Source: Clostridia bacterium | GTDB taxonomy: Bacteria; Bacillota; Clostridia; Oscillospirales; CAG-272 | DNA: 64,000 nt | Direction of reading: 5' to 3' | Assembly (NCBI GenBank): GCA_017621655.1 | Contig: JAGASS010000051.1 | Location: 77,418-141,417, forward strand | Part shown: positions 4,665 through 64,000 of the stretch, piece by piece | Position numbering within the stretch: the stretch's first letter is position 1 | Layout: each line of letters opens with the position of its first letter | Notes under the pieces: generated by a model | What the model was told of the DNA's origin: nothing | The model's database searches: none | Seen by the model: the letters and a program-made list of their open reading frames with translations, nothing else | Translations under genes and position numbers: made by a program

Positions 4665-5933
4665 TTATTCCTCCAGCGCTTTAAGGGCGCGCGCGCCGAT
4701 GTCTTTGCGGTAGAAAGCGTTATCAAAGCTTATCTTGCTTACGAGCTTATATGCCTCGCTAATTGCTTCGGGAAGCGTATTTGCAACTGCTGTTGCGCCG
4801 AGAACTCGTCCGCCTGCGGTAACAAGCTTTCCGTCCTTTTCAGCCGCTCCAGCAACGTAGACGTTACCTGCTATTTCATCGGGGATATTTATCTCAAATC
4901 CCTTTTCATAGCTCTGCGGATAGCCGTTTGACGCCATAATTACGCAGCAAGCGTGCTTATCCTCGAAAACGACCTCGGTCTCGTCAAGCGTTCCGTTTGT
5001 CGTTGCCTTCATAATTGTCAGAAGATCGCTCTTAAGAAGCGGAAGCACGACCTGCGTTTCGGGGTCGCCGAAGCGGCAGTTATACTCGATTACCTTCGGT
5101 CCGTCGGGGGTTATCATAAGTCCGAAGTAAAGACATCCCTTAAACGGTCTGCCCTCCTGCACCATAGCATTTACGGTCGGAAGGAAGATCGTTTTCATAC
5201 AGACGTCCGCAACTTCTTTTGTATAATACGGGTTAGGGGCAACGGTTCCCATACCGCCTGTATTAAGTCCCTCGTCATTATCGTGCGCTCTCTTGTGGTC
5301 CATAGACGAAACCATCGGCTTGACAGTCTTTCCGTCTGTAAACGCGAGAACTGAAACCTCGGGACCTGTGAGGAATTCCTCGATAACAACTCTTGAACCG
5401 CTGTTACCGAACACCTTGTCGCTCATCATACTCTTGACAGCGTCGACAGCTTCCTCCCTTGTCATAGCGACTATAACGCCCTTACCGAGAGCAAGACCGT
5501 CCGCCTTAATAACTATCGGAATCTTGCAGGTTTCAAGATATTTGAGTGCATCTGCTTCATTATCAAATGTCTCGTATTCAGCCGTCGGAATACCGTATTT
5601 TTTCATAAGATTCTTTGAAAAGATCTTACTTCCCTCGATCTCTGCCGCCTTAGCGCCAGGACCGAAGCACGGAATTCCCTTTTCATTCAGCGCGTCGACC
5701 GCGCCGAGTACGAGCGGATCGTCGGGCGCGACTACTGCATAGTCGATAGCGTTATTAACCGCAAAATCAACTATTGCGGGAATATCCTTTGCGCCGATGT
5801 TGACTAATGTAGCATCACCCGCCATTCCCGCGTTTCCGGGAAGGGCGTAGATGACGTCTATCTCTTTATTTTCTTTCAGCTTTTTAATGATGGCGTGCTC
5901 TCTGCCGCCACCGCCAACTACCATTATTTTCAT
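4665..5933 (-). CDS. purD: phosphoribosylamine--glycine ligase
   Basis: MKIMVVGGGGREHAI and ATP-grasp blocks match the GARS family. The ORF-track start is an upstream TTG. ATG at 5933 is chosen, but its SD is weak. Confidence 0.9.
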   Translation of the reverse strand: MKIMVVGGGGREHAIIKKLKENKEIDVIYALPGNAGMAGDATLVNIGAKDIPAIVDFAVNNAIDYAVVAPDDPLVLGAVDALNEKGIPCFGPGAKAAEIEGSKIFSKNLMKKYGIPTAEYETFDNEADALKYLETCKIPIVIKADGLALGKGVIVAMTREEAVDAVKSMMSDKVFGNSGSRVVIEEFLTGPEVSVLAFTDGKTVKPMVSSMDHKRAHDNDEGLNTGGMGTVAPNPYYTKEVADVCMKTIFLPTVNAMVQEGRPFKGCLYFGLMITPDGPKVIEYNCRFGDPETQVVLPLLKSDLLTIMKATTNGTLDETEVVFEDKHACCVIMASNGYPQSYEKGFEINIPDEIAGNVYVAGAAEKDGKLVTAGGRVLGATAVANTLPEAISEAYKLVSKISFDNAFYRKDIGARALKALEE

Positions 5934-5953
5934 AGCTGCACCAAACAATTATA

Positions 5954-7138
5954 TCAGTGATGGAAAAGTCTCATTCCGGTGAATGCCATAGCCATACCGT
6001 ACTTATCACAGCACTCGATAACGAGGTCGTCACGGATTGATCCGCCCGGCTCAGCTATGTACTTAACGCCGCTCTTCTTTGCTCTTTCGATGTTATCGCT
6101 GAACGGGAAGAACGCATCTGAGCCAAGTGCTACACCGTCGATAGTATCAAGGTAAGCTCTCTGCTCTTCCTTGGTGAATGGAGCGGGCTGAGACGTAAAG
6201 TACTTCTGCCAGTTGCCGTCAGCACAAACGTCCTCTTCATTCTGATTTATATAACCGTCTATAACATTATCACGGTCGGGACGTCCGATTGTGTCCTTGA
6301 AAGGAAGGTTAAGGACCTTGTCGGACTGACGAAGGAACCAGGTGTCCGCCTTACCGCCTGCAAGACGGGTACAGTGAACACGGGACTGCTGACCTGCACC
6401 AACGCCTATTGCCTGTCCGTCAACTGCGAAGCAAACGGAGTTAGACTGCGTATATTTGAGGGTAATAAGCGAGATTATAAGGTCGCGGACAGCGCTTTCG
6501 GGCATATCCTTATTTGCGGTAACTACGTTAGAAAGAAGCTCCTTATTGATCTTGAAGTTGTTTCTTCCCTGCTCAAAGGTGATACCGTAGACCTGCTTGC
6601 GCTCTGCCTCATCGGGAACGAAGTTCGGGTCGATCTTTACGATATTGTAGCTTCCCTTTCTCTTGGATTTGAGGATCTCAAGAGCTTCCGGCTCGTATCC
6701 GGGAGCGATAACGCCGTCGGATACCTCGCGCTTGATCATAAACGCGGTGGTGACGTCGCAAACGTCAGAAAGCGCTACCCAGTCACCGAAGGAGCACATT
6801 CTGTCGGTTCCTCTTGCTCTTGCGTAAGCACAAGCGAGAGGCGACTCGTCAAGTCCTTCAATATCATCGACGAAGCATGCCTTCTTGAGCTTCTCGGAAA
6901 GAGGAAGACCGATAGCGGCTGATGTCGGAGAAACGTGCTTAAACGAGGTAACAGCAGGCATTCCGAGAGCTTCCTTAAGCTCCTTTACAAGCTGCCAGGA
7001 GTTAAATGCGTCAAGGAAATTGATATAACCGGGGCGGCCGTTCAGGATATCGATAGGAAGATCCGAGCCGTCGTGCATATATATTTTAGAGGGCTTCTGA
7101 TTGGGGTTACAGCCGTATTTAAGTTCAAATTCTTTCAT
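5954..7138 (-). CDS. purH: AICAR formyltransferase (PurH C-terminal domain only, no MGS/IMP-cyclohydrolase domain)
   Basis: The 394-aa product starts with LKYGCNPNQ and ends with TGMRLFHH, as in the AICARFT half of PurH. An AAAGGAG SD precedes it. Confidence 0.88.
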   Translation of the reverse strand: MKEFELKYGCNPNQKPSKIYMHDGSDLPIDILNGRPGYINFLDAFNSWQLVKELKEALGMPAVTSFKHVSPTSAAIGLPLSEKLKKACFVDDIEGLDESPLACAYARARGTDRMCSFGDWVALSDVCDVTTAFMIKREVSDGVIAPGYEPEALEILKSKRKGSYNIVKIDPNFVPDEAERKQVYGITFEQGRNNFKINKELLSNVVTANKDMPESAVRDLIISLITLKYTQSNSVCFAVDGQAIGVGAGQQSRVHCTRLAGGKADTWFLRQSDKVLNLPFKDTIGRPDRDNVIDGYINQNEEDVCADGNWQKYFTSQPAPFTKEEQRAYLDTIDGVALGSDAFFPFSDNIERAKKSGVKYIAEPGGSIRDDLVIECCDKYGMAMAFTGMRLFHH

Positions 7139-7157
7139 TGTATGTACTCCTTTTATA

Positions 7158-7880
7158 TCAAGCGTTTTTGTTTATTGTAATGATCTCATCCTTATTGCTG
7201 CAAAGAGAATGAGAAATAACAACAAGAGAAACTTTGTTATCCTCGTTTAAGTTCTTCCAGCAGAGGTCAGCTAATTCCTTTGCGGTGTTGGGAAGAGATA
7301 CCTCCTCGGGTTCACCATAGAATGAAGGAATAGGATTGCCGTCACACTTATAGGTGTGGATAAAGTGTCCAATACCTGACTCGGGTACGTACTCGTAGAA
7401 GAAACGCTGACAAACCTCGGGGCGTCCGTTTGCACTCTTGAGAATAGAGAGCTTATATGTAAAGTCAGAATGATCCTCGTTGTAATCAACTATACCCGAA
7501 ATTCTTGGAGTATAGTTGGGATGGTCTGGCTCGTACTCACGAGTACGCAGTGCCTCCTCAAATGTCTTGCCTTCGTTTATAAAATCATAGATCGTATTGG
7601 TCTGATCACCGTTGGTGATGATGTCTGTATTGCCGTTATTGGCGGAAAGATAGGGATTGTAGATAATAAGACTGGGATCAGAGAGCTTGGACTCGTCAAA
7701 TGCCTTTGTACGCATACCGTTCTCAAACCACTCAAATACTCTGTTGCGGCTATTTTCGCTTCTGCCCATTATAAAGTACGCGATAAGCGCGCTCTTTCCG
7801 TCTGCGGATTTACCGATAACGATTCCGCGTCCGGGATAAGTGTTTTCGCTCAAAAGCTTAGTAAGATCGTAAAGTGCCAT
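7158..7880 (-). CDS. purO: IMP cyclohydrolase, PurO-like (archaeal type)
   Basis: YPGRGIVIGKSADGKSALIAYFIMGRSENSRNRVF resembles the PurO family N-terminus. I place the start at MALYDL (ATG at 7880), 1 nt after the purN stop, with the SD AAAGGAAA inside the purN 3' end. Confidence 0.75.
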   Translation of the reverse strand: MALYDLTKLLSENTYPGRGIVIGKSADGKSALIAYFIMGRSENSRNRVFEWFENGMRTKAFDESKLSDPSLIIYNPYLSANNGNTDIITNGDQTNTIYDFINEGKTFEEALRTREYEPDHPNYTPRISGIVDYNEDHSDFTYKLSILKSANGRPEVCQRFFYEYVPESGIGHFIHTYKCDGNPIPSFYGEPEEVSLPNTAKELADLCWKNLNEDNKVSLVVISHSLCSNKDEIITINKNA

Positions 7881-7881
7881 A

Positions 7882-8502
7882 TCAGTTATTTCCTTTCGCA
7901 TCCATTATTTCTTTTGATACCTTTTCGCAAGAGAGAGGAAGTATCTTCCACTCCGCCTGCTTCATAACTCTTTTTTGGAGAGACTCGGGAGTATCGTTCT
8001 TACATATCTTGACGGCTTTTTGCATAATAATTCTGCCGCCGTCGGGAATTTCATTTACGAAATGAACAGTTGCGCCCGTTACCTTAACGCCGTATTCAAG
8101 CGCCGCCTCGTGGACGCGCAGACCGTAGAATCCCTTGCCGCAAAACGACGGGATAAGTGAGGGGTGAACGTTAATTATCCTCTCGGGATAACGCGAGGTG
8201 AAATTCTCGGTCAGAATTGACATAAAGCCCGCAAGGACTATAAGCTCAATACCGTAGCGGTCAAGAACCTCAATTATTCCCTTTTCAAAAAGCTCCTGCG
8301 AGCCGTTAAGAAGACGCTTACAGACGACCTCTGTCGGAATACCTGCATTTTTTGCACGGACAAGACCGTAAGCATCGGGCTGTGACGAGATAACGCAAGT
8401 AATTTCGCCGCTTTTTATAATTCCGCTGTTCTGCGCATCTATCAGCGCCTGCAGATTCGTTCCGCCGCCTGAGATAAGGACGGCAATTTTCGTTTTACTC
8501 AT
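7882..8502 (-). CDS. purN: phosphoribosylglycinamide formyltransferase
   Basis: KIAVLISGGGTNLQALID and NVHPSLIPSFCG are GART motifs. The SD AAGGAGG lies in the last codons of the upstream gene. Confidence 0.92.
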   Translation of the reverse strand: MSKTKIAVLISGGGTNLQALIDAQNSGIIKSGEITCVISSQPDAYGLVRAKNAGIPTEVVCKRLLNGSQELFEKGIIEVLDRYGIELIVLAGFMSILTENFTSRYPERIINVHPSLIPSFCGKGFYGLRVHEAALEYGVKVTGATVHFVNEIPDGGRIIMQKAVKICKNDTPESLQKRVMKQAEWKILPLSCEKVSKEIMDAKGNN

Positions 8503-8503
8503 A

Positions 8504-9115
8504 TCAGCCCTCCTTTTTTTTGCCTTTAAGCAAGGTCAGTGTCGGGAACAAAAGTCCGCCGACGGTATTTCCAAGGATAACTATTACGAGGAAAACAAGC
8601 ATTTCAAGCGAGAATATTCTTGCAGTGAAGAAGTAAAACATATCCGCAATCGAATGCTCGAATCCGCTAAGAATAAACACGGGAACGCAGAAGAAGATAG
8701 CAAGCGGAGATTTGTTTTCCTTAAATACCGCAACCGCGAGATACATAAGTATTCCGCAGAATATCGCCTTGATGAATACGCCGAGAAGATTATCGTCAAG
8801 CTTGGCTTCACACATAGTCTTAGCGAGAACTGCTCTATCCGAAAGCGCGAAGCTTACAGCCAAACCTGAAAGAAGCGTTCCAATGACGTTACCGAAAAGC
8901 CCCGTCATAAGAGTAACGAAGTCGCTTCCCTTGTGGTTATACGCCATAAATCCGATCTTGCCTGTATAAAGCGAGTAACCGCGATAACAGATTATAAGAA
9001 GCGCTATCGTAAAGAAGCACGCACCGGGAATACCTCCGCCAACCGAGAGAAGCACCGTTCCGCCGATGCCTATCATAAGTCCTGCGAGGATACCGTCTAT
9101 AGTTCCCTTCAGCAT
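8504..9115 (-). CDS. formate/nitrite transporter (FNT) family channel, short form
   Basis: The 203-aa polytopic membrane protein carries FNT-like blocks [11 protein letters not shown] and [11 protein letters not shown]. Its start overlaps the purM stop (ATGCTGA), and its stop lies 1 nt before the purN ATG. Confidence 0.7.
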
Positions 9116-10155
9116 ATTACGACCTTTTCCTCACTCTTAACTATCTTACCGATAGTGTAAGCGTCGATACCGTTATTCTTAAGTATCTCGATTGCCTTGT
9201 CTGCCTCAGTGGCAGGAACTACTATGCTCATTCCAACGCCCATATTATATGTATTGAACATATCTCTTTCGGGGATGTTACCGAATTTTGCGATAAGATC
9301 GAAAATGGGAAGGATCTTGACAGACGCCTTGTCGATAACTGCGCCGAGACCGTCGGGAATGCTTCTCGGAATATTCTCGTAGAATCCGCCGCCCGTGATA
9401 TGCGAAATGCCGTGAACATTGACCTCGCTAAGGAGCGCGAGCACCGGCTTTACGTATATCTTAGTAGGCGTAAGAAGTGCCTCGGCTATCGTTTTACCGC
9501 CAAGCTCTTCCCTCTCAACGTAAAGAAGCGGATCGTTATTATCAATATTAAATACCTTACGGCAAAGCGAGAAGCCGTTACTGTGAATACCTGTCGAGGG
9601 AAGCGCGATAACAATATCGCCCTCCTGCATCTTCTTATTGTCGATAATCTTCTTTTTATCAACGATACCGACAGCAAAACCGGCGAGGTCATAATCGTCG
9701 ATAGGCATAAGTCCGGGATGCTCGGCAGTCTCACCGCCAATCAGAGCCGCGCCCGACTGAACGCAACCCTCAGCAACACCCGATACGATCGCCGCGATCT
9801 TCTCGGGAACGTTCTTTCCGCAAGCGATATAATCAAGGAAGAAAAGTGGCTTTGCGCCGACGCAGATAATGTCGTTTACGCACATTGCGACCGCGTCGAT
9901 ACCGATAGTATCGTGCTTGTCCATAAGGATAGCAAGCTTGACCTTAGTTCCGCAACCGTCAGTTCCCGAAACAAGAACCGGCTCCTCCATTCCGCTGATG
10001 GGAAGACCGAAGCAACCGCCAAAGCCGCCAACGTCATCAAGACAGCCCTCGTTTCTCGTGCGTGCGATATGCGCCTTCATAAGCTCTACTGCTTTGTAAC
10101 CTGCGGTGATGTCAACACCTGCCTGCTTGTAGCTTTCGCTGTAACTGCTTTTCAT
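9109..10155 (-). CDS. purM: phosphoribosylformylglycinamidine cyclo-ligase (AIR synthetase)
   Basis: [19 protein letters not shown] and the overall length (348 aa) fit the PurM family. Confidence 0.93.
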
Positions 10156-10176
10156 ACCTATATCCTTTCAAATTGT

Positions 10177-11601
10177 TTATTCTTTACCGTTCCAGCAATA
10201 GGTGCAAAGCTTGCACGGATCAATTCCTATTGCCTTTATTACGCCGTCAAGCGACTGGAAGTCGAGCGAATCAAAGTGGAAGCGCTCACATATAGTCTTA
10301 CGAAGCGCCTTACCTCTTTCGGTAGATCCGTCGCTGTATTCTTCAATATAGTTGAAGCCCTCCTCGCCCTCAAGCTCGTTTATGATCCTGCGAGCGATAA
10401 GCTCCATATCGGATGTCGCGCGGCTGAAATTAAGATACTTACAGCCATACATGATCGGAGGACACGCAGAGCGCATGTGAACGCTCTTTGCGCCGTTATC
10501 GTAAAGGAAGTCTACAGTTTCCTTAAGCTGTGTACCGCGGACGATTGAGTCGTCAACGAACATAAGGTGCTTGTCCTTGATAAGCTCAAGAACCGGTATC
10601 TGCTTCATCTTTGCGACCTTGCTTCTTGCCGCCTGCGTAGTAGGCGTGAAGGAACGCGACCAAGTGGGAGTATACTTTATAAATGCTCTTGCAAACGGCA
10701 GATGGCTAGCATTTGAATAACCGATAGCATGAGGGGTACCCGAATCGGGAACGCCGACGACGTATTCGATGTTCTCATCAAGACCTGCCTTACGGTCGTT
10801 TTCAGCCATAATCTGTCCGTTTCGATAACGCATTATCTCAACATTGACACCCTCATAGGTCGATGTCGGGTAACCATAGTAGCTCCAAAGGAAGGAGCAA
10901 ATACGCATCTCTTTTCCCGGCTCGGCAAGCTGACGGCAGTAATCGGAGCAAAGCTCGACGATCTCTCCCGGTCCAAGCTCCTTATGATGCTCATAACCGA
11001 GCTTTTGATATGCGTACGCCTCGAAGGATACACAGTATCCTTCATCTTTACGTCCTATCTGTACGGGAATTCGTCCGAGACGGTCACGAGCCGCAATGAT
11101 CTTTCCGTCATCCTTAAGAATAATGATCGAGGCAGTTCCGTCAATTATCTCTTGCGCAAAGTGTATACCGTCGACGAAATTTTCCTTTTGTCCGATAAGC
11201 GCCGCTACAAGCTCCGTAGAGTTTACGTTTCCGCCCGTCATCGCGTTAAAATGAGCGGAGCACTCGGAAAGATGATCGCTTATCAGCTGTTCGGCATTGT
11301 TGATTATACCTACAAAGCAGATAGCAAACTTTCCGAGACGCGAACGCACAAGAAGCGGCTGTGGATCAAAGTCACTGATGCAACCGATCGCCGAGTTGCC
11401 CTTCATATCGTCAAAGACGTGCTCAAACTTCGTACGGAAGGGAGAGTTTTGTATATTGTGTATTTCTCTTTGCAGACCCGCAAGATCGTGATATGCGGCG
11501 ATACCACCGCATTTCGTTCCGAGATGCGAATGATAGTCTGTACCGAAAAATACGTCTGAAATTGCGTCGCACTTAAGCGCCGCGCCGAAATATCCGCCCA
11601 T
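10177..11601 (-). CDS. purF: amidophosphoribosyltransferase-like protein (divergent N-terminus, no Cys at position 2)
   Basis: The PRTase block LMFVDDSIVRGTQ and the position between purE and purM support the call. The N-terminus is MGGYFGA instead of the canonical MCG. An AGAGGT SD precedes it. Confidence 0.8.
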   Translation of the reverse strand: MGGYFGAALKCDAISDVFFGTDYHSHLGTKCGGIAAYHDLAGLQREIHNIQNSPFRTKFEHVFDDMKGNSAIGCISDFDPQPLLVRSRLGKFAICFVGIINNAEQLISDHLSECSAHFNAMTGGNVNSTELVAALIGQKENFVDGIHFAQEIIDGTASIIILKDDGKIIAARDRLGRIPVQIGRKDEGYCVSFEAYAYQKLGYEHHKELGPGEIVELCSDYCRQLAEPGKEMRICSFLWSYYGYPTSTYEGVNVEIMRYRNGQIMAENDRKAGLDENIEYVVGVPDSGTPHAIGYSNASHLPFARAFIKYTPTWSRSFTPTTQAARSKVAKMKQIPVLELIKDKHLMFVDDSIVRGTQLKETVDFLYDNGAKSVHMRSACPPIMYGCKYLNFSRATSDMELIARRIINELEGEEGFNYIEEYSDGSTERGKALRKTICERFHFDSLDFQSLDGVIKAIGIDPCKLCTYCWNGKE

Positions 11602-11622
11602 GAATTACCTCTTTTATAGTTC

Positions 11623-12123
11623 TTATGCGTTGAATTTTTCTTCGATTGCTCTGTTCTTTTCGAGAACCTTCTCTGCTCCCTCGCTTCTTGCCTTGTCAAG
11701 ACGCGCGGCAAGCGCACCGTCTGTAACGGCAAGTATCTGAACAGAAAGCATAGCGGCATTGGCAGCTCCGTCGATAGCTACTGTTGCGACAGGTATTCCT
11801 GTCGGCATCTGTACTGTCGAAAGAAGCGCGTCAATGCCGTCGAGATTTTTACTTTTTACAGGTATTCCGATAACGGGAAGCGTAGTGTTAGCCGCTATTG
11901 CCCCCGCAAGATGTGCCGCCATACCCGCAGCGGCAATTATAGCGCCGAAGCCGTTTGCTCTTGCATTGACCGCAAACTCCTTTGCCTCGACGGGCGTTCT
12001 GTGCGCCGAATAAACGTGTACCTCGAACGGTACACCGTATTCTTTAAGCACGTTAATTGCTTTTTCGACAACGGGAAGATCGCTATCGCTTCCCATTACG
12101 ATTCCAACCTTTTTAATGCTCAT
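11623..12123 (-). CDS. purE: 5-(carboxyamino)imidazole ribonucleotide mutase
   Basis: VGIVMGSDSDLPV and YSAHRTP are PurE motifs. I place the start at MSIKKV with GGAGGTAACT immediately upstream. Confidence 0.92.
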   Translation of the reverse strand: MSIKKVGIVMGSDSDLPVVEKAINVLKEYGVPFEVHVYSAHRTPVEAKEFAVNARANGFGAIIAAAGMAAHLAGAIAANTTLPVIGIPVKSKNLDGIDALLSTVQMPTGIPVATVAIDGAANAAMLSVQILAVTDGALAARLDKARSEGAEKVLEKNRAIEEKFNA

Positions 12124-12149
12124 AGTTACCTCCAATTACCCGACAAATC

Positions 12150-12250
12150 AAAAATGGGCAGTCTTGCCTTATAATGCAAAACTGCCCAGACGGTCGGCTT
12201 TATTATTTTCCGTTCCCCGGTGGTTGCCCACCCATCCGTCAGTTGCGGAA
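12150..12250 (-). promoter_or_regulatory. ZTP (pfl-motif) riboswitch aptamer (about 12181-12250) plus overlapping intrinsic terminator (12150-12189)
   Basis: The minus strand reads UUCCGCAACUGACGGAUGGGUGGGCAACCACCGGGGAACGGAA, then an A-rich linker, then GCCGACCGUCUGGGCAG. Structural elements are P1 UUCCG/CGGAA, the hairpin GGUGG-GCAA-CCACC followed by GGGGA, and 3' CCGUC pairing with GACGG (pseudoknot) followed by UGGGC. The terminator GGGCAGUUUUGC...GCAAGACUGCCC+AUUUUU shares its 5' arm with the conserved CUGGGCAG. Confidence 0.8.
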
Positions 12251-12265
12251 AATCTCAACGCACTT

Positions 12266-14507: not shown

Positions 14508-14543
14508 GATTGTGTATGGAAAATTTTGAAAGGAGGTTACGTC

Positions 14544-15554
14544 TTGAATCAAAACGATAAAAAGCTGAATTTGCGTCAAAATCCGCAAAAACGTGCTGTT
14601 GATCAGCCGATCAACCGTCCTCAGAATCATAGACCAAATCAGCCCCGTCAAGAGCAAATACCTCCCATTCAAAACAGATCCCCACAGCGTCCGCCGATAA
14701 ATCGACAAGTGCAGCAGCGTCCGCAGAACGCGGCAAAAAAGCCGTCGGGGCTTACTGACAACCTGCGTTCACAGACACCGCTTCAAAGGCAGATGCGTAA
14801 GAAAAACGCACCGAGTGAACCCGGAACCGTCAGAAGGACCGCAACTCAGCAGTTCAAGATCCGTCAAAGCGGAACAAAGCCGCAAAAGCAAAAGGTAAAG
14901 AAGACAAGCAGGTCCTTCACGAAACGCGTTCTTGTTTTAGGTGTGATTGCCTACCTGATACTGCTTCCGATGGTCGTTTTAATTGCAAACCTGCTTTTGA
15001 AATCAAACGTCATGACGGAGACCGATGATTTCAGCTACCGCCTCGGCACAGGTAAAAACACGGTATCCATAAAAACGTATTCTTATTCACGCGTCTGCCG
15101 AGACGGCGTTTACTACATCGACATGGACGCTCTTGCCGACTACTGCGAATTGACTACGACGGGCGACGGTAAGAATATGCGCTACGTCGTAAGAGAGACC
15201 GCTGAATCGGTTGAATTCGTTCTCGGCGAAAGCATCGCTTATATAAACGGTGTTCCCGACAGAACGGGAGGAAACGCGTTTCTTTACGGCGGAAAGGTAC
15301 ACATTCCGCTTGAGTTTGCAAAGAGATGCTTTATTAATCTTGATATTACCCTTGATACAGAGCGAAACAGAATAACGATCGTACGTAACACGGACGAAAA
15401 AGGAAATTATCTCGCACTTGACTTCCCATATAAGCTGACTGACGGAACCGATAAGATCGTTTTCGGCGAGCTTGAAGTTGAGATCCAGGAGCAGATAATA
15501 AAGCAAAACCAGCCCGTCATACCCGAGGGCGACGTTACCCTACCAATTCAGTAA
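14544..15554 (+). CDS. membrane-anchored protein with P/Q/R-rich N-terminal tail and C-terminal globular domain
   Basis: The likely start is TTG 14544, 7 nt after AAAGGAGG (the ORF-track start is an upstream TTG overlapping the SD). About 135 low-complexity residues (RPQN/QRP repeats) are followed by one TM (VLVLGVIAYLILL) and a roughly 190-aa domain. Confidence 0.6.
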   Translation: MNQNDKKLNLRQNPQKRAVDQPINRPQNHRPNQPRQEQIPPIQNRSPQRPPINRQVQQRPQNAAKKPSGLTDNLRSQTPLQRQMRKKNAPSEPGTVRRTATQQFKIRQSGTKPQKQKVKKTSRSFTKRVLVLGVIAYLILLPMVVLIANLLLKSNVMTETDDFSYRLGTGKNTVSIKTYSYSRVCRDGVYYIDMDALADYCELTTTGDGKNMRYVVRETAESVEFVLGESIAYINGVPDRTGGNAFLYGGKVHIPLEFAKRCFINLDITLDTERNRITIVRNTDEKGNYLALDFPYKLTDGTDKIVFGELEVEIQEQIIKQNQPVIPEGDVTLPIQ

Positions 15555-17787: not shown

Positions 17788-18369
17788 ATGGCTATGAATG
17801 AAACGGCGGCTGTGATCAGTTCATGTATCTCGCCAAGCGCTATATGCAAGGTAATGTTTGAGTATCAGCAGTATGAAGAATTTTTCTTTCCCGTTGCAAT
17901 ATCCGACGAGCTTTTCCTCTCGGTAAGCGACAGAGATTTCCGTCTTGACGGCTTTACTCTAAGACAGCTATCCGACGTTGTATCGGCTACGCCGATAAAA
18001 GGCACTTATCTCAAGATCCATCAGGCGGAGGGTAATCTTTCGCGCTTATCTGTTCCGCCTATAAATATCAAGAGCTGGCGTCACGCATTCAACTCCATCC
18101 TCGCTTCGGGAGAGATAATAAGTGTTGAGGGATATGCTCCAAACAGCACAAACAAGTACTTCATAGTCGGACGAGTTCTCGCTGTCGGCGAGCAAGGCAT
18201 TCGCATAAGAACCTTTGACGGAAGCGGAACCTGGGCAGAAAATCCGATAACCGTTCCCTATAAAAATATCTTCTCAATGACCTTCGGCTCGTCTTATATT
18301 ACGACCTATACAAAATACCTAAAGCCATACCCCGAGGTCAAGCCCCCGACACCCATCAAAAACCGCTGA
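17788..18369 (+). CDS. hypothetical protein
   Basis: 193-aa ORF with AAAGGAGAA 6 nt upstream. I recognise no motif. Confidence 0.5.
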   Translation: MAMNETAAVISSCISPSAICKVMFEYQQYEEFFFPVAISDELFLSVSDRDFRLDGFTLRQLSDVVSATPIKGTYLKIHQAEGNLSRLSVPPINIKSWRHAFNSILASGEIISVEGYAPNSTNKYFIVGRVLAVGEQGIRIRTFDGSGTWAENPITVPYKNIFSMTFGSSYITTYTKYLKPYPEVKPPTPIKNR

Positions 18370-41424: not shown

Positions 41425-41991
41425 ATGGCAGTTAAAATTTTTATAGATCAGGGTCACAATCCGCGCAACCCAAACGCAGGAGCCGAGGGAAACGGCCTTT
41501 ACGAGCAGGACATAACCTACGAGGTAGGTGTTCAGCTTGCGGACCTGCTTCGAGCGAACCCGAATTTCGAGGTTCGACTCTCGCGAAATTCACCCGACGA
41601 AATACTCGGAACGAGTATCGGAACAAGCTTAAAGGCGCGCACAGATGCGGCAAATAATTGGGGCGCGGACGCATTTATCAGCATACACGCAAACGCGTCA
41701 AACATAGAAAGCGCAAGCGGAAACGAGGGCTACGCGTACTCGCAAAGCTCGCCCGGCTTCGCTCTCGGCGAGAATATTCTCATAGGACTTACAGAATCAA
41801 CGGGACTCAAAAGCCGCGGAATGTTCGTCCGTCCGTCTCTCTACGTTTTAAGGCGGACTAAAATGCCTGCTGTACTTATTGAGCTTGGATTTATAACGAA
41901 TCCCTCTGACGCCGCACTTATGAACGAGCGTCCCGATCTGTTTGCTACGGGAATGTATAACGGTATACTTACCTATTACGGCTTGAATTAA
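41425..41991 (+). CDS. N-acetylmuramoyl-L-alanine amidase (Amidase_3 family), no obvious signal peptide
   Basis: IFIDQGHN, ISIHANAS and VLIELGFITN blocks. The start is MAVKIF with GGAGGAA upstream (the ORF-track extension overlaps ttcA). Its stop overlaps the stop of the convergent gene at a TTAA palindrome. Confidence 0.82.
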   Translation: MAVKIFIDQGHNPRNPNAGAEGNGLYEQDITYEVGVQLADLLRANPNFEVRLSRNSPDEILGTSIGTSLKARTDAANNWGADAFISIHANASNIESASGNEGYAYSQSSPGFALGENILIGLTESTGLKSRGMFVRPSLYVLRRTKMPAVLIELGFITNPSDAALMNERPDLFATGMYNGILTYYGLN

Positions 41992-42686
41992 CCCTCGGGG
42001 GCAAATTCGATCATAGCACGGAAAACCTTTTTTGAGTAGCTATATATATTATTTGCTTCTTTACGCCCCATCATTGACGACGTCGTCGGCATAACTCTGA
42101 AGCAAACTATCGTATCCTCGGGAAGCTTTCCGACAGAATCGGTAAAGAAGTTATAAAATTCAAGGTCACGCAGATAAATCGAATATTCGTCGATAGCATT
42201 GTCGGGCATATATCCGAGAACCTTAGAAAGCGGAACGATAGCTTTATTGCTTTTAAGAATATCGTACCAATGCTTATCAATAAGGCAAATGTATCCGTCG
42301 CCCGCTACGGCGCTCGTAAACTTATTTCTTGCTTGGTCGACTGTATAAGGTGCGTATTTTATAAGCAGATCTTCGTCTTCGGACTCGCCTGTAGCATCGC
42401 GTATCTGCTCGTCGGTAAAGGCAGGAATATCCATAATATCCGCCGACTTTTTACCGTCACCGTTATAATCGTCCATTATCTGCTCAAAGGCATCGGATAA
42501 CGCATCCTTTTCATTTATCTCGAAGATATGAGGGCCTGTATACATTATCCTTACGTCATGCTTTTCCTGCGTTGAGCACTGAACGAAGCATATAGTAAGT
42601 ATCACGGCAAAAGCGCCGATCACTATAACGCCCCATTTATAATAGTACCAATAATTATGAAACCAATCTTTTATTTTCGTAAACAC
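41988..42686 (-). CDS. hypothetical single-TM protein
   Basis: 232 aa. GTG start with GGGAGA 5 nt upstream, N-terminal TM WGVIVIGAFAVILTICFV. I recognise no motif. Confidence 0.5.
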   Translation of the reverse strand: MFTKIKDWFHNYWYYYKWGVIVIGAFAVILTICFVQCSTQEKHDVRIMYTGPHIFEINEKDALSDAFEQIMDDYNGDGKKSADIMDIPAFTDEQIRDATGESEDEDLLIKYAPYTVDQARNKFTSAVAGDGYICLIDKHWYDILKSNKAIVPLSKVLGYMPDNAIDEYSIYLRDLEFYNFFTDSVGKLPEDTIVCFRVMPTTSSMMGRKEANNIYSYSKKVFRAMIEFAPEG

Positions 42687-44423: not shown

Positions 44424-45896
44424 ATGAACGAATCAACTCTCCCCCTTACGCTGAATAATGACCACTGGACGGTAACGGCAATAATGCTCACTGCGTTCAC
44501 CGACGATATAGATACTCCCGTCCGCAAAACCGAGCTTAATCTTCATCGCGGACAGCTTGGTGAGAAGCTTGAAGGAAACATTTTCTTTCTTGAAAATGAA
44601 CACGACGGCAACGCTTACGTTATCATAACCGACTGTCCCGATAACGAAAGAGCTGTTTTGACGGTAAACGATTTCACCGTCGACCTTAACTGCGGAACTA
44701 ACCCTGTGGCTATAGTACCCTGCAAAAAAGGCGAGTGTTACGAGGCATGCCGAACCGAATACAAGAAAAGAATGGCGAACCGTCCTCTAATTTCCATGTC
44801 TAACACTTGGGGAGACCGAAACGGATTTTCACGAGTCTCTGAAGCATTTGTAATGCGCGAGATCGACAAGGCGGCGGTCCTTGGTCTTGACGTTGTGCAG
44901 ATAGATGACGGCTGGCAGGTCGGTAACACAGCAGATCCTTCTATTCTCGATTCAAAAAACCGCCGAATCTTCGATGACTATTTCTGGCAGCTTAATACCG
45001 AGCGTTTTCCGAACGGTATACGTTTCCTTTCGGATTATGCCGCTAAAAAGGGTGTAAAGCTCGGTCTTTGGTTTGCGCCCGACAGCAGAGAACATTTTAC
45101 CCGCGCCGAGCGAGATATTGCGATACTAAAAAATGCTTACGATAATTGGGGCGCGAGATTTTTCAAGCTCGATATGTACTGGATAGAATGCGACGAGGAC
45201 AGGGACGCTTTTCTATCGCTTCTTAAGGCAGTTTACGACTTCGGAGACGACGTCTTCGTGCAGATAGACGTAACGACACCTGCGCGTATCAACTATCTGT
45301 GCGGTCGTGAGTACGGTACGATTTTTGTTGAAAACCGCTACACAAAATGGAGAACGTACTATCCAAACAGAACGCTAAAAAACCTTTGGCTTCTTTCAAG
45401 CTGTATTCCCGCATCAAAGCTTCAGTTCGAGCTTGTAAACTCGGGGCTTAATGCTGACTGCTATGATGAAAACGACGACTTCGCACCGTCTAAATACGAT
45501 ATCGACTATCTGTTTGCTTCCGTTATGCTCTCGAATCCCCTCTTTTGGATGGAGCTTCAGTTTCTTTCCGACGAGAATACAGAGAAGCTGAAAAAGATAA
45601 TAGGTTTCTGGCATTCTTACCGAGATATTTTCCGTAACTCAGACGTTTCGCCTATTGGCGAAAAGCCGTCAGGCAGAAGCTTCACGGGCTTCCGTATTAA
45701 AAACGGAAACGATCAATACGCGCTCTTATTCAGAGAAGCAACATTCAGCGATAGCGGCGTTTACGTAATGCCGAGAAACATTAATAGCGCTGAAGTTTTA
45801 CTGAGTAATGCTGACGTTTCGATAGAAACCATTGGCAACGCATTAAAAGCAACCTTTTCAAAGCCGCGCTCTTACGCATTTATCAAGTTTCATTAA
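44424..45896 (+). CDS. glycoside hydrolase, alpha-galactosidase-like (clan GH-D, GH36/GH27-related)
   Basis: NTWGDRNG, VVQIDDGWQ, GLWFAPD and FFKLDMYW resemble melibiase-type TIM-barrel blocks. AGGAG SD upstream. Confidence 0.5.
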   Translation: MNESTLPLTLNNDHWTVTAIMLTAFTDDIDTPVRKTELNLHRGQLGEKLEGNIFFLENEHDGNAYVIITDCPDNERAVLTVNDFTVDLNCGTNPVAIVPCKKGECYEACRTEYKKRMANRPLISMSNTWGDRNGFSRVSEAFVMREIDKAAVLGLDVVQIDDGWQVGNTADPSILDSKNRRIFDDYFWQLNTERFPNGIRFLSDYAAKKGVKLGLWFAPDSREHFTRAERDIAILKNAYDNWGARFFKLDMYWIECDEDRDAFLSLLKAVYDFGDDVFVQIDVTTPARINYLCGREYGTIFVENRYTKWRTYYPNRTLKNLWLLSSCIPASKLQFELVNSGLNADCYDENDDFAPSKYDIDYLFASVMLSNPLFWMELQFLSDENTEKLKKIIGFWHSYRDIFRNSDVSPIGEKPSGRSFTGFRIKNGNDQYALLFREATFSDSGVYVMPRNINSAEVLLSNADVSIETIGNALKATFSKPRSYAFIKFH

Positions 45897-45901
45897 ACGA
45901 A

Positions 45902-45933
45902 AATGTCCCCCCGATAATCGGGGGGCATTTTTA
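45902..45933. terminator. intrinsic terminator between convergent genes
   Basis: CCCCCCG-ATAAT-CGGGGGG followed by CATTTTT. Confidence 0.75.
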
Positions 45934-47751
45934 CTTCAGTATCGTTTCTGCAATTTCTGCGGACGTAATTCCGTGAATCTTACAGCTCGTATTATCAATG
46001 ACTGAGATCAAGTCGTTAAGTGACAGTCGACAACCGTTAAGAGCTTCTTCAAGCAACGCTATCTCGCCGTCAGCAAAGAAGTCGCCGTTGATTCTCGCAT
46101 CCTTTATAACGCCGTTTTCGGAGTCGAAGGAGATCTGAATGCTTCCGCCGTCAAATCTTGCGCTCACTGTCTTTGAAAGCGCCTTGGAGCTTCCGTAAAC
46201 GTATTCCCACGACGAATATTTTTCGTCTGCGAGAAGCTTGATCTCGGATTTATCCTTATCAGTAAGTTCAAGGCGTCTGCCCCATAGCTTATCAGTCAAT
46301 ATGCAATCAATCATACTGACGGTAACGTAGGGATAAACGTCCTTTATGTTCGTCACACGGCTTCTTACGCTACTTATACCCTTGCTCGTCAGCTTTTCAG
46401 CATTCACGTTAAGCACCGAAGAAAGCACGTCGGCATCGACGTCTACAAGCAGTGTGCCGTGATGAAGCACCTTGCCGTATTTACGGCACTGCGCACTTCC
46501 AGAGATCTTTTTACCGCCCATAAGCAAATCGTTTCTACCCGAGATCTCAGTCTCGATTCCAAGCGAAGCAAGGGCTTCCTTGATAGGCGCGAGGAAGCGA
46601 GCAAAATCAATACCGTTACCGTCATCCTTGACTATAAAGGTAAAATTAAGATTACCGCTGTCGTGGTAGACTGCACCGCCTCCGCTCATTCTGCGGACAA
46701 CTGAAATTCCGTTCTTCTCGGCATAAGGAATATTGACCTCTGCATACGCGTTCTGATAGCGACCTATAACGACCGTCGGACTGTTCTGCCAAAGGACAAT
46801 TACGTCCTCATCACAGTTCTTCATAAGCCATTCCTCAAGCGCGAGATTATAAAACGGATCGGTTGAGGAATTGTGTAGAAGTCTGTGCTGAGAAGTCCAT
46901 ACGTTATGCGATTGCTTCGCGCGCTTCAGATGCTCGGAGGGATGGGTGCCGAAAATACCCTTAAAGGTCTTGGAAAAGTGTGCCGGTGTGATAAAGCCAC
47001 TCATGTCGCATATCTCGGCTATCGTGTACTTCTTCGACCCCAAAAGCTCCTTTGCGAATTCACATCTTGTACGGTTAATGAACTCAACAGGAGTAAGTCC
47101 CGTTGACTTTTTGAATTCGCGGCAAAAATGATAGCGCGAAAGTCCAGCCGCGTCCGACACCTCTTCAAGTGAGAGATCGCGTCTGAAATTCTGCTTGATA
47201 TAATTTATTGAATACTTTATCTTCTTTAGCGTTTTGCTTTCCTTTTCGCTATTCGTATCCTTAACGGTGTAATCACGGCACATACGAACGCAAAGCTCTG
47301 CAACTATTGACTTTACTATAACGCTTTTGAACTTATCGTCATGGTGCCACTCAATGCAGATCTTATCAAAAAGCTCGCTGAAGCATGGTGACGCGATCTT
47401 ATCCTCAAAGCAGACCTCGTCAGTATCAATGCCTATCGAATATAGAAAATCGTTATCGATGATAAGACAATGATAACGAAATTCACTTTCGGTGGTCGAA
47501 TAATGTATTCTGTTCGTATTTATAACCGCCATTTCACCGGGCACGAGCTGAATCGCCTTCATATCGGAATAAACAGTCCCCGAGCCGGAAATGCACATAA
47601 GTATTTCAAGCTCCTTATGCTTATTTGCGTGATGCTGAGGCGAATTTATAACGCAGTCTGTATGAAAAACAAAAGGGAGCGCGCGGTGAGAGAGCATGTG
47701 CGTCTCTAAAGTAGCTTCACGGCTCACAGTATCCAGCAGATTTTGATCCAT
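45931..47751 (-). CDS. fusion protein: AraC-family regulator (cupin + AraC/XylS HTH) joined in frame to lipoate-protein ligase A
   Basis: N-terminal half: a cupin-like segment (ELEILMCISGSGTVY...PGEMAVINTNRIHY) and the dual HTH (LSLEEVSDAAGLSRYHFCREFKKSTGLTPVEFINRTR...IAEICDMSGFITPAHFSKTFK). C-terminal half: LplA blocks DPFYNLALEEWL, RRMSGGGAVYHDSGNLNFTF, GGKKISGSAQ and the C-terminal accessory domain (EKYSSWEYVYG). There is no in-frame stop or start in the roughly 18-residue linker (46870-46923). I place the start at MDQNLL. Confidence 0.8.
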   Translation of the reverse strand: MDQNLLDTVSREATLETHMLSHRALPFVFHTDCVINSPQHHANKHKELEILMCISGSGTVYSDMKAIQLVPGEMAVINTNRIHYSTTESEFRYHCLIIDNDFLYSIGIDTDEVCFEDKIASPCFSELFDKICIEWHHDDKFKSVIVKSIVAELCVRMCRDYTVKDTNSEKESKTLKKIKYSINYIKQNFRRDLSLEEVSDAAGLSRYHFCREFKKSTGLTPVEFINRTRCEFAKELLGSKKYTIAEICDMSGFITPAHFSKTFKGIFGTHPSEHLKRAKQSHNVWTSQHRLLHNSSTDPFYNLALEEWLMKNCDEDVIVLWQNSPTVVIGRYQNAYAEVNIPYAEKNGISVVRRMSGGGAVYHDSGNLNFTFIVKDDGNGIDFARFLAPIKEALASLGIETEISGRNDLLMGGKKISGSAQCRKYGKVLHHGTLLVDVDADVLSSVLNVNAEKLTSKGISSVRSRVTNIKDVYPYVTVSMIDCILTDKLWGRRLELTDKDKSEIKLLADEKYSSWEYVYGSSKALSKTVSARFDGGSIQISFDSENGVIKDARINGDFFADGEIALLEEALNGCRLSLNDLISVIDNTSCKIHGITSAEIAETILK

Positions 47752-47982
47752 ATGTGTTTTCCCTTTCAAAACAGCAATTTCAACGCAAATATAGCACAAA
47801 AAGAGCTATTTGTCAATGATTTTCGGCAATTTATAGCGCATTTTATGACGAATTTTTTTGAACGCGAACGCCAAAAAATCGAGCGTTCTTTTTTTGTTCT
47901 CTTTTATATCGAACATTGTCGAAAATTTGTTCTATTACGCAAAAAATATTAGAATTTGTCGTCAAAATAGTGGGTTTTTCTA

Positions 47983-48011
47983 TTGCAAAACCCTATTCTC
48001 TGATATATAAT
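47983..48011 (+). promoter_or_regulatory. sigma-A type promoter of the dcw (mraZ) operon
   Basis: TTGCAA, a 17-nt spacer, TATAAT. Confidence 0.65.
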
Positions 48012-48019
48012 TGTAGCAG

Positions 48020-48055
48020 AAGTGGTGAAAAGTGGGTCAAAGTGGTTGAAAAGTC
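48020..48055 (+). promoter_or_regulatory. candidate MraZ operator: direct repeats with 10-bp phasing
   Basis: AAGTGGTGAA AAGTGGGTCA AAGTGGTTGA AAAGTC lies immediately downstream of the -10. Confidence 0.6.
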
Positions 48056-48107
48056 CACGATATGACCGCAACTTCCCATAAAAACGTCAAGCAAGGAGGA
48101 AACGCGT

Positions 48108-62611: not shown

Positions 62612-64000
62612 ATGAACAATCCTTACGATCAGAATTCTCGAAACAACGAGCCGATAACCGAGCAAAATGCGGTTAATGCCGAGCCGATCCATCAGCCCGA
62701 GCCGCCGAAAGCAGAGCCGACTCAGACACAGACGCAGTCAACAAATCAGGGCTACACACCTCCGACTCAGCCGTATGCTCAGAACGGATATAATCAGCAG
62801 TACACGCAAAACTACGGCGAATACAGACAGAATCCGCAGTACGCGCAGAACAACCAGAACACCTATCAGCGTCCGCAGTACAGTGGATATTACGGAAACG
62901 CCGGATATTACGGTCAGCAAGCGACTCAGACTCCCTATTCTCAGCCAAACAGACCTCAGATACAGATCCAGAAGCCCGAAAAGAAGCGCGCTTCCAAGGG
63001 ATTTGTAATAGGAATGGTCGGTATCGGACTTGCTATATCCTTCCTTTTCAACGTATTCAGCTGTTCTATTATGCACATGCCCTCCGACGGCATGAGTATC
63101 TTCTCGCCCGGTGAAGTCATTATTCAGTACGCACCCAAGAACGAAAACACAACGCCGATAACCGATAAGGGCGTCTCAGCTTACGTCGCATCGGTTGCCG
63201 CAAATACGGTAGTTGAGGTAACTACGGAAACCGTTGAGACAGACACATATTACGGTCAATATATCACAGAAGGCGCAGGAAGCGGCGTTATCGTGTCCTC
63301 GACCGAAGACGGAAGCTACATTCTCACCTGCGCGCACGTCATTGACGGTGCGGCAAAGATAACCGTCAAGCTCAAGGACGGAACGGTATATGAGGCGGAT
63401 TCTTACGTCTGCGACGCGGAAAGTGACGTTGGCGTTATCAAGCTGAACGTCAAGGGTCTTCCCATCGCTACAGTCGGCAACTTCGACGAGGTCGTCATCG
63501 GTGAAACCGTAGTTGCGATCGGTAACCCTCTCGGAACTCTCGGCGGCTCCGTAACTAACGGAATCGTAAGCGCTCTTGACCGCGATATTATCATTGACGG
63601 AACGACCTATCACCTTCTCCAGACAAACGCAGAGATCAACCCCGGTAACTCGGGCGGCGGACTCTTCAACGCAAAGGGCGAGCTTATCGGCATCGTCAAC
63701 GCTAAATCCGTCGGCGAAAACGTTGAGGGTCTCGGATTTGCAATTCCCGTATCCGATGCAGTCGCAATAATGACCGATCTGATTGAAAAGGGCTACGTTT
63801 CGGGAAGAGTCAAGCTCGGATTTGAGCTGTTTGAGATTCAGACGGAAGAAGACATAAGATACTGGTTCAAGTATTACAGATACTTCTCAGATTACGGTGT
63901 ATATATTGCTTCCGCTGAAAGCTCAAGCTTCCAGGAGGGCGACCTTCTTGTTGCTATCGACGGCAATAAGATCACTACCCTTGCCGACGTAAAAGCACTC
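62612..64000 (+). CDS. htrA: HtrA/DegP-family serine protease with Q/N/Y-rich N-terminal tail, 3' end beyond window
   Basis: Not in the ORF track (no stop in window). My translation from ATG 62612 (AGGAGG 5 nt upstream) gives about 125 low-complexity residues, a TM (FVIGMVGIGLAISFLF), the trypsin-like triad context TCAHVI / DVGVIKL / GNSGGG, and the start of a PDZ domain (GDLLVAIDGNKI). Confidence 0.88.
   Translation, partial: MNNPYDQNSRNNEPITEQNAVNAEPIHQPEPPKAEPTQTQTQSTNQGYTPPTQPYAQNGYNQQYTQNYGEYRQNPQYAQNNQNTYQRPQYSGYYGNAGYYGQQATQTPYSQPNRPQIQIQKPEKKRASKGFVIGMVGIGLAISFLFNVFSCSIMHMPSDGMSIFSPGEVIIQYAPKNENTTPITDKGVSAYVASVAANTVVEVTTETVETDTYYGQYITEGAGSGVIVSSTEDGSYILTCAHVIDGAAKITVKLKDGTVYEADSYVCDAESDVGVIKLNVKGLPIATVGNFDEVVIGETVVAIGNPLGTLGGSVTNGIVSALDRDIIIDGTTYHLLQTNAEINPGNSGGGLFNAKGELIGIVNAKSVGENVEGLGFAIPVSDAVAIMTDLIEKGYVSGRVKLGFELFEIQTEEDIRYWFKYYRYFSDYGVYIASAESSSFQEGDLLVAIDGNKITTLADVKAL

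Follow-up and report, generated by a model that had tools for sequence, protein, structure and literature searches.

The 64,000-nucleotide stretch of DNA analyzed here (the window; positions 77,418 to 141,417 of contig JAGASS010000051.1 in the Clostridia assembly GCA_017621655.1) contains a single minus-strand open reading frame (ORF), at 45931-47751, in which a complete AraC/XylS-family transcription regulator is continued by a complete lipoate-protein ligase, LplA. This fusion, araC::lplA, is genuine, and a single genus-level clade of uncultured gut Clostridia has maintained it in evolution; we think it probable that it produces one modular bifunctional protein of 606 amino acids (aa), derived from an operon in which regulator and enzyme were co-translated. 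The NCBI entry for the identical protein (MBO5041168.1) is named just “lipoate--protein ligase”, an annotation that conceals a 290-residue regulator and may be taken as a warning on current annotation.

Architecture and occurrence of the fusion

The coding sequence begins with an ATG at 47751 and runs without interruption to a TAA stop codon at 45931-45933, and the full regulator and full ligase that the original prediction had read from this one frame are borne out by four Pfam domains and a TIGR00545 score above cutoff. Closest to the N-terminus, AraC_binding (PF02311) marks a cupin or ligand-binding domain at residues 43-109 (47425-47625, minus strand, like the other domains and motifs of this gene), a match that is weak at 26.4 bits yet above its cutoff of 21.1. 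The roughly 100-aa C-terminal part of the AraC half contains two helix-turn-helix (HTH) motifs, as AraC/XylS membership requires, and this dual DNA-binding domain (HTH_AraC/HTH_18) occupies residues 185-277 (46921-47199), where PF12833 is covered from position 2 to 80 of 80 at 67 bits and PF00165 matches in two stretches at 65 bits. The same region is also matched by the HTH chains of MarA and XylR in the PDB and by the NCBIfam Ada model NF011964. The LplA half begins with a catalytic domain at residues 291-479 (46315-46881), recognized by Pfam (LplA-B_cat, PF21948, residues 298-479, E 6e-68), TIGR00545, and Foldseek, and ends with the C-terminal accessory domain at residues 527-604 (45940-46173; Lip_prot_lig_C, PF10437, 61 bits, positions 6-85 of 85), which LplA requires for the adenylation step. 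The NCBIfam equivalog model for lipoate--protein ligase, TIGR00545 (cutoff 280), gives 375.6 bits and aligns over positions 3-327 of 328 with residues 291-604, and the BPL_LplA_LipB fold (PF03099) matches this half as well.

Both catalytic blocks of LplA are intact, as had been claimed from the sequence, and they are not those of a decayed remnant. One is the adenylate-binding motif RRMSGGGAVYHD (R353-D364, 46660-46695), and the other is GGKKISGSAQ, which carries the conserved lipoyl-AMP lysine, Lys415 (codon at 46507-46509). In an alignment of 14 family members (A1), R353, R354, S356, G357-G359, A360, V361, H363, D364, and K415 are invariant, and the blocks as a whole are invariant at nearly every residue. 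RRMSGGGAVYHD is aligned to RRISGGGAVYHD of PDB 1vqz, and the RRxSGGGAV(Y/F)HD and GxKxSGxAQ blocks line up with both 1vqz and 8cri; K415 is presumably the counterpart of K133 in Escherichia coli LplA.

An AlphaFold2 (AF2) model of the full fused protein, built on a 102-sequence alignment, has a mean predicted local distance difference test (pLDDT) score of 89, domain pLDDT above 90, and a predicted template modeling (pTM) score of 0.57, so that the domains are confident and their packing against each other is not. A beta-rich, barrel-like region lies at residues 27-98 (pLDDT above 90) and helices at 173-286. With ToxT, Rns, and CsvR, which Foldseek matches to the AraC half, the root-mean-square deviation (rmsd) is 13-15 Å; these matches reflect only the scarcity of full-length AraC structures and are uninformative on the ligand. 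The LplA half superposes on solved LplAs with template modeling (TM) scores of 0.82-0.90, the best being Enterococcus faecalis LplA-2 (5ich; TM 0.90, rmsd 1.9 Å).

Between the halves, residues 278-290 (46882-46920) form a junction in which the former C-terminal tail of AraC is read through into the former N-terminus of LplA. None of its codons is a stop, an ATG, a GTG, or a TTG, and the nearby ATG within AACGTATGGACT is out of frame, all of which had been noted at the outset. Two other details of the original prediction needed revision. LplA had been taken to start right at DPFYN, but the homology begins at about residue 289, some 8 residues further toward the N-terminus, where HRLLHNSSTDP aligns with MKIINNQSTDP of stand-alone orthologues. 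The linker had been put at about 18 residues but is actually about 2-13, since in the AF2 model a helix ends at residue 286 and the first strand of LplA begins at 289, leaving a very short tether. His289 stands where the ancestral LplA start Met stood; most fused members have His at this position and the others Tyr or further residues, and the separate start codon is gone. The junction-spanning peptide contains SEHLKRAKQSHNVWTSQHR, and its sequence varies among fused members while its length is fixed, the distance from HFSK in AraC to DP in LplA being 126 nt, without a stop, in 9 of 9 fused loci.

We also considered whether the ATG of the window (in GTATGGA) is a relic of an ancestral ATGA overlap in which TGA became TGG. 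Such an ATG is absent from L006, Trp is not found at this place in other fused members, and it is His289 that aligns with the ancestral Met. On these alignments the out-of-frame ATG is a lineage-specific feature and no relic start codon.

Eight contigs, which come from three sources (NCBI, ENA, and Logan) and represent at least 5 independent samples, encode the identical 606-aa protein, and its four-domain architecture recurs in 12 further clusters of 601-644 aa at 72-97% identity. The full-length fusion occurs in 7 metagenome-assembled genomes that serve as GTDB species representatives, and the fused loci share a common synteny, with the dcw cluster (ending in rsmH and mraZ) divergent from the fused gene and an optional GH36-like gene followed by mgtE convergent with it. 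The fusion is thus conserved at the same locus in relatives, the outcome for which a domain-architecture search had been proposed. It had also been foreseen that relatives might all encode separate araC and lplA genes, with the fusion unique to this assembly; the first part of that scenario holds for sister lineages, described below, and the second fails on the 8 contigs. When 1.84 billion cluster representatives (50% identity) were scanned for distant fused homologues, a single fused cluster appeared in the list of the 150 best matches and the remaining 149 were LplA-only or AraC-only; LplA fused to other HTH classes could rank lower and be missed in such a scan. That an assembly indel merged two ordinary neighboring genes is effectively refuted, for although sister lineages truly have two separate genes at this position, the identical product was assembled independently by different pipelines, all nine fused loci keep exactly the same anchor interval at synonymous divergence (dS) above 1, and replacement of the ancestral lplA start Met leaves no separate start.

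Descent from an overlapping operon

A search with the AraC half alone returned stand-alone homologues at 47-58% identity. At four loci (L086, L088, L089, and GCA_016648615) araC (288-296 aa) is followed by lplA (317-320 aa) with a 4-bp overlap, ATGA, in which the lplA ATG lies over the araC TGA. The upstream flank of this pair is dcw/mraZ in L086 and L088, as in the window, and a coaX-like gene in L089 and GCA_016648615; a convergent mgtE follows closely in L086, L089, and GCA_016648615 and lies about 5 kb off in L088. In neighbor-joining trees of each half, the fused clade is monophyletic and the split forms are successive outgroups, and because the trees of both halves agree in this, a single fusion event accounts for all fused members.

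The HFSK to DP distance in split loci is 128, 122, and 128 nt, each of which leaves a remainder of 2 on division by 3, with the ATGA overlap, as against 126 nt in the fused loci. These intervals mean that a net change of -2 nt in the araC tail shifted araC into the lplA frame ahead of its own stop codon, and by this comparison the difference in anchor interval is the true signature of the fusion. The ancestor was a two-gene araC-lplA operon whose ATGA start/stop overlap provided translational coupling. A net -2 nt change in the 3' tail of araC, within one genus-level clade, then joined araC to the lplA frame, and since the fusion LplA has been made solely as the C-terminal part of the regulator, using the araC promoter and start codon. 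With split orthologues, a single origin, and selection on both parts, the gene is, on comparative grounds, a Rosetta-stone fusion of operon partners. Even if the two modules are independent, it offers a clean and datable case of a 2-nt change at an ATGA overlap turning an operon into a multidomain protein.

Selection was estimated as the ratio of nonsynonymous to synonymous divergence (dN/dS), from pairwise Nei-Gojobori comparisons over the nine fused loci. The AraC half has a dN/dS of 0.056, within which the N-terminal cupin domain stands at 0.08 and the HTH alone at 0.036, the lowest value in the gene; the LplA half has 0.081, with 0.054 in its catalytic domain, and the 13-residue junction about 0.4. 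Across these loci dS is 1.3-1.8, so synonymous sites are near saturation. Purifying selection on both halves agrees with the earlier view of the LplA half as no decaying remnant, and because dN/dS is low, dS nearly saturated, and the junction constant in length without stops, it appears that both modules are functional and that the fused frame has long been maintained.

The two halves do not always give the same distances between species. Over 45934-47751, the window is 79% identical to L011 in AraC and 88% in LplA, and 83% and 76% identical, respectively, to L012. Such discordance suggests that recombination between species has occurred, the breakpoint lying within the junction or close to it.

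Related loci have also lost one module or the other. In L087 (sister to L086) and L090 (sister to L089), araC is found without an adjacent lplA, and on this placement these are two independent losses of lplA from the locus. The AraC protein can, it seems, exist without a neighboring lplA, as judged at the locus, with copies elsewhere in those genomes possible. Conversely, the AraC module is deleted in frame in one lineage nested inside the fused clade: what is left of AraC before LplA is its first ~30 residues in P0013 (L003 and L004) and just MGKN, ahead of RFIYNSS, in L013. Both AraC-deleted forms are still in frame and use the promoter and ATG of araC, and a dN/dS of 0.095 at a dS of 0.43 for LplA of L013 and P0013 means that purifying selection continues. 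Since LplA is still selected after the deletion of AraC, its function appears to be retained by selection and AraC not to be needed in cis, with copies elsewhere possible in these genomes too. One chromosomal position thus presents a natural series of coupled operon, fused gene, araC alone, and lplA alone, which makes the question of coupling directly testable. Downstream of the AraC-deleted genes, synteny in L013 is broken, with an FtsH-like gene after lplA in place of GH36/mgtE (L013 8960-10477), and the L003 and L004 contigs stop within 150 bp of the lplA stop codon.

Promoter, candidate operator, and terminator

The fused gene has a near-consensus promoter on the minus strand at 47788-47816, TTGACA-17-TGcTATATT, with a TG-extended -10 hexamer and 11 of 12 consensus matches. 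This promoter is conserved in 16 of 16 related loci, be they fused, split, or single-gene, and with either mraZ or the coaX-like gene upstream. Two copies of a repeat, in which AAATTGC(C/T)G leads into an A/T run, bracket it on the same strand. Candidate operator half-site 1 (AAATTGCCGAAAA, 47820-47832) lies directly upstream of the -35 hexamer and is kept at position -14 in nearly all loci, and candidate half-site 2 (AAATTGCTGTTTT, 47768-47780) lies just downstream of the -10 hexamer. They are 52 bp apart, a spacing that is conserved, and both copies change together in L090 (AATCTTGCCG / AATCTTGCGG) and in L089. In our reading the two half-sites together are a candidate operator through which AraC would repress a strong promoter. 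In L004, a tandem duplication of ATTGTCGAAATAAATTGACAAA, comprising the candidate half-site and the -35 hexamer, is found upstream of the AraC-deleted lplA (2060-2110).

The exact 13-mer pattern occurs in only two places in the 64 kb, namely the two half-sites, so a search of the window for regulon members through this promoter-flanking repeat yielded no more exact matches, and matches with 1 mismatch were at chance level. The looser pattern ATTGYYGWWWW has 8 matches in the window, 3 of them within 160 bp of the fused-gene promoter. The third of these, a possible distal inverted copy (ATTGTCGAAAA, 47915-47925, plus strand), is weak, and only its core GTCGAAAA is conserved in other loci.

At its other end, the fused gene shares a bidirectional intrinsic terminator with the convergent GH36-like gene (45907-45925), consisting of an 8-bp stem with 7 G-C pairs and T runs on both strands. 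This terminator and the gene order uphold the earlier description of a gene with its own terminator, divergent from the mraZ promoter and convergent to a GH36-like gene. An Rfam scan gave no match at the araC::lplA locus.

The divergent mraZ side has features of its own. The mraZ promoter, TTGCAA-17-TATAAT, lies at 47983-48011 (plus strand) and is followed by GTGG(T/G) repeats with a 10-bp period (48022, 48032, and 48042, then a degenerate one at 48053), which are kept in all mraZ-linked loci; this array (47983-48059 region, plus strand) looks like a MraZ-box operator array. The segment between the divergent promoters (47860-47945) contains conserved direct repeats of GAACAAA as well as an inverted repeat, GAACGC...GCGTTC (47860-47888). 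The mraZ-linked loci, whether fused, split, or single-gene, show little or no variation in GAACAAA and in the left arm, GAAC; the right arm has low conservation beyond the fused clade. These repeats hold LexA-like GAAC/GTTC words.

A probable modular protein, a possible coupled switch, and known systems

If araC::lplA encodes a modular protein, the reading we prefer, then its LplA module would most likely be an ordinary ATP-dependent lipoate (or octanoate) salvage ligase, which would form lipoyl-AMP and then pass the lipoyl group to the lysine of a lipoyl domain. The AraC module would most likely be a DNA-binding regulator controlled by a cupin ligand, and it probably autoregulates its own strong promoter via the repeats on either side of the -35 and -10 hexamers. 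That the araC-lplA pair is conserved in several genera and came to be fused suggests a functional link between the regulator and lipoate salvage, and such a link would itself be new, but no evidence requires allosteric cross-talk between the two halves.

Several observations weigh against parts of this reading. The near-consensus promoter makes a classic AraC activator role there unlikely, and repression alone fits. The proposed operator is made of short AT-rich repeats that were picked partly post hoc, and these are kept in AraC-deleted loci, where they could be UP-element or leader features. Lipoyl-dependent proteins were sought in the 64-kb window and none were found. In addition, the very short tether might make full independence of the modules sterically unrealistic.

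The original prediction raised the idea of a BirA-like protein, which would be one in which lipoyl-AMP formation or consumption in LplA alters DNA binding by the tethered AraC HTH. LplA undergoes a large C-terminal domain rotation on adenylation, which would be one route, and transcription of the gene itself or of lipoate genes would then track lipoylation demand. LplA and BirA do share the BPL_LplA_LipB catalytic fold (PF03099), and here a ligase of this fold is combined in one polypeptide with a DNA-binding domain, albeit with an HTH of AraC type and not a winged helix. Conformational changes in LplA could reach the HTH across so short a tether. Translational coupling and then fusion, over several genera, suggest selected co-production and possibly physical interaction, the candidate operator repeats bracket the gene's own promoter, and the fusion has persisted while synonymous divergence reached saturation. 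On the other hand, the AraC half has a complete and selected cupin sensor/dimerization domain, so a second sensor is unneeded, and the modules are separate polypeptides in the ancestral state. Nor are they kept together at this locus, where split sisters exist, araC persists without adjacent lplA in L087 and L090, and the LplA of L013 and P0013 remains under purifying selection after AraC has been deleted. The AF2 model, at a pTM of 0.57, has no confident interface between the halves, and genes for lipoate synthesis, uptake, or acceptor proteins that might be regulated are absent from the window and the neighboring loci. Because the AraC sensor is complete, the modules were ancestrally separate, and each has been lost independently, obligate coupling is disfavored, and we consider a BirA-like switch unlikely.

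A further and more specific proposal, which we regard as improbable, is that AraC, as a separate protein and in the fusion alike, acts as a dedicated lipoate-salvage regulator that would sense free lipoate or octanoate via its cupin, and that in the fused clade LplA rotation would gate the HTH through a tether of 2-3 residues. If true, this would be the first dedicated lipoate-salvage regulator to be described in bacteria, and a lipoate analogue of BirA built independently on an AraC scaffold.

Enzyme-derived sensor domains are common in transcription factors, and the fusion puts LplA where effector domains sometimes lie, so it could be supposed that the LplA half has lost catalysis and now serves the regulator as a domain for ligand sensing or protein binding, one that senses, for example, lipoate or an apo-lipoyl protein. 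This is very unlikely given that the RRxSGGGAVxHD and GxKxSGxAQ residues, K415 included, are invariant or nearly so, that the TIGR00545 score is over the equivalog cutoff, and that the catalytic-domain dN/dS is 0.054. LplA alone is still selected once AraC is deleted, which argues that ligase activity is the selected trait.

The original prediction had also supposed that the AraC half may once have been a sugar regulator, because of its convergent neighbor, a Melibiase/GH36-like gene of 490 aa (44424-45896, plus strand). Glycoside hydrolase genes are often under AraC-family control, and AraC could in principle be an alpha-galactoside regulator of this neighbor, joined to lplA by accident and unrelated to lipoate. 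The distribution of the GH36-like gene contradicts this. It is present in the window, L001, L006, L010, L011, and L091-L094 and missing from L005/L012, L007, L008, L009, and all split-lineage loci, a presence/absence polymorphism in which it is absent from 4 of 9 fused loci, whereas the araC-lplA pair is present in all GH36-less loci. By this pattern the GH36-like gene is a variable insertion younger than the araC-lplA linkage. It also begins 12 bp after mgtE, on the strand opposite to the regulator, with no promoter region of its own facing it, and we give regulation of GH36 by AraC hardly any credence.

The remaining neighbors in the window are housekeeping genes (the dcw cluster, a pur operon, GS, NAD synthase, and others). 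A ZMP/ZTP riboswitch (RF01750, 62 bits) lies at 12177-12256 on the minus strand, upstream of a minus-strand region (~4665-12135) that resembles a long purine-biosynthesis operon by layout alone. ORFs with no Pfam match are found at 41988-42686 (-), 14526-15554 (+), 17788-18369 (+), 62667-63008 (+), and 63176-63613 (-). The first of these, of 232 aa, is conserved and syntenic in all related loci and fast-evolving (62-83% identity as against above 90% for its neighbors).

The closest known arrangement is the split araC-lplA operon itself (L086, L088, L089, and GCA_016648615), which consists of orthologous genes at the same position with the same promoter architecture and flanking repeats. It differs in making two polypeptides from genes with a 4-bp ATGA overlap, whereas in the lineage of the window these were merged by net -2 nt and the LplA Met was lost. 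Stand-alone LplA/LplJ proteins (E. coli 1x2g, E. faecalis LplA-2 5ich, Streptococcus pneumoniae 1vqz, and Listeria monocytogenes LplA1 8cri) match the ligase over its full length at 33-38% identity, but they are ~330 aa long with their own start codon, whereas the fused ligase follows a 290-residue N-terminal regulator and has no start of its own. LplA is likewise found in fusion or fission with functional partners in the LplA-LipA fusion NF053790, in LplAB, and in split LplA-LplB. In that type the partners are lipoate-pathway enzymes or the LplA C-terminal domain and not a transcription factor, and the protein described here scores far under the cutoffs of those models (243 against 800).

From the side of the regulator, Ada and fusions of the Ada-AlkA type likewise have an AraC-type HTH followed by a C-terminal enzyme, so the AraC domain tolerates such placement. 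Ada, however, is a DNA repair methyltransferase and not a cofactor ligase, has no cupin, and is switched as a regulator by self-methylation.

A literature search returned no paper on AraC-LplA or on any DNA-binding LplA, so the architecture appears undescribed, as the original prediction had ventured. To our knowledge, no transcription factor dedicated to lipoate salvage has been described, and BirA is the only cofactor ligase that we know to double as a repressor. If DNA binding by the fused protein responded to lipoate plus ATP, then the significance of the fusion would rise substantially. BirA, the group II biotin protein ligase and repressor of the bio operon, likewise combines an N-terminal DNA-binding domain with a ligase of the BPL_LplA_LipB fold and is the conceptual model for linking transcription to cofactor demand, but its HTH is a single winged one, it lacks a separate sensor, and its adenylate drives dimerization and DNA binding. 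The fused protein instead has a complete AraC/XylS regulator with a cupin and two HTHs, its modules also occur separately in relatives, and no cofactor genes are adjacent to it.

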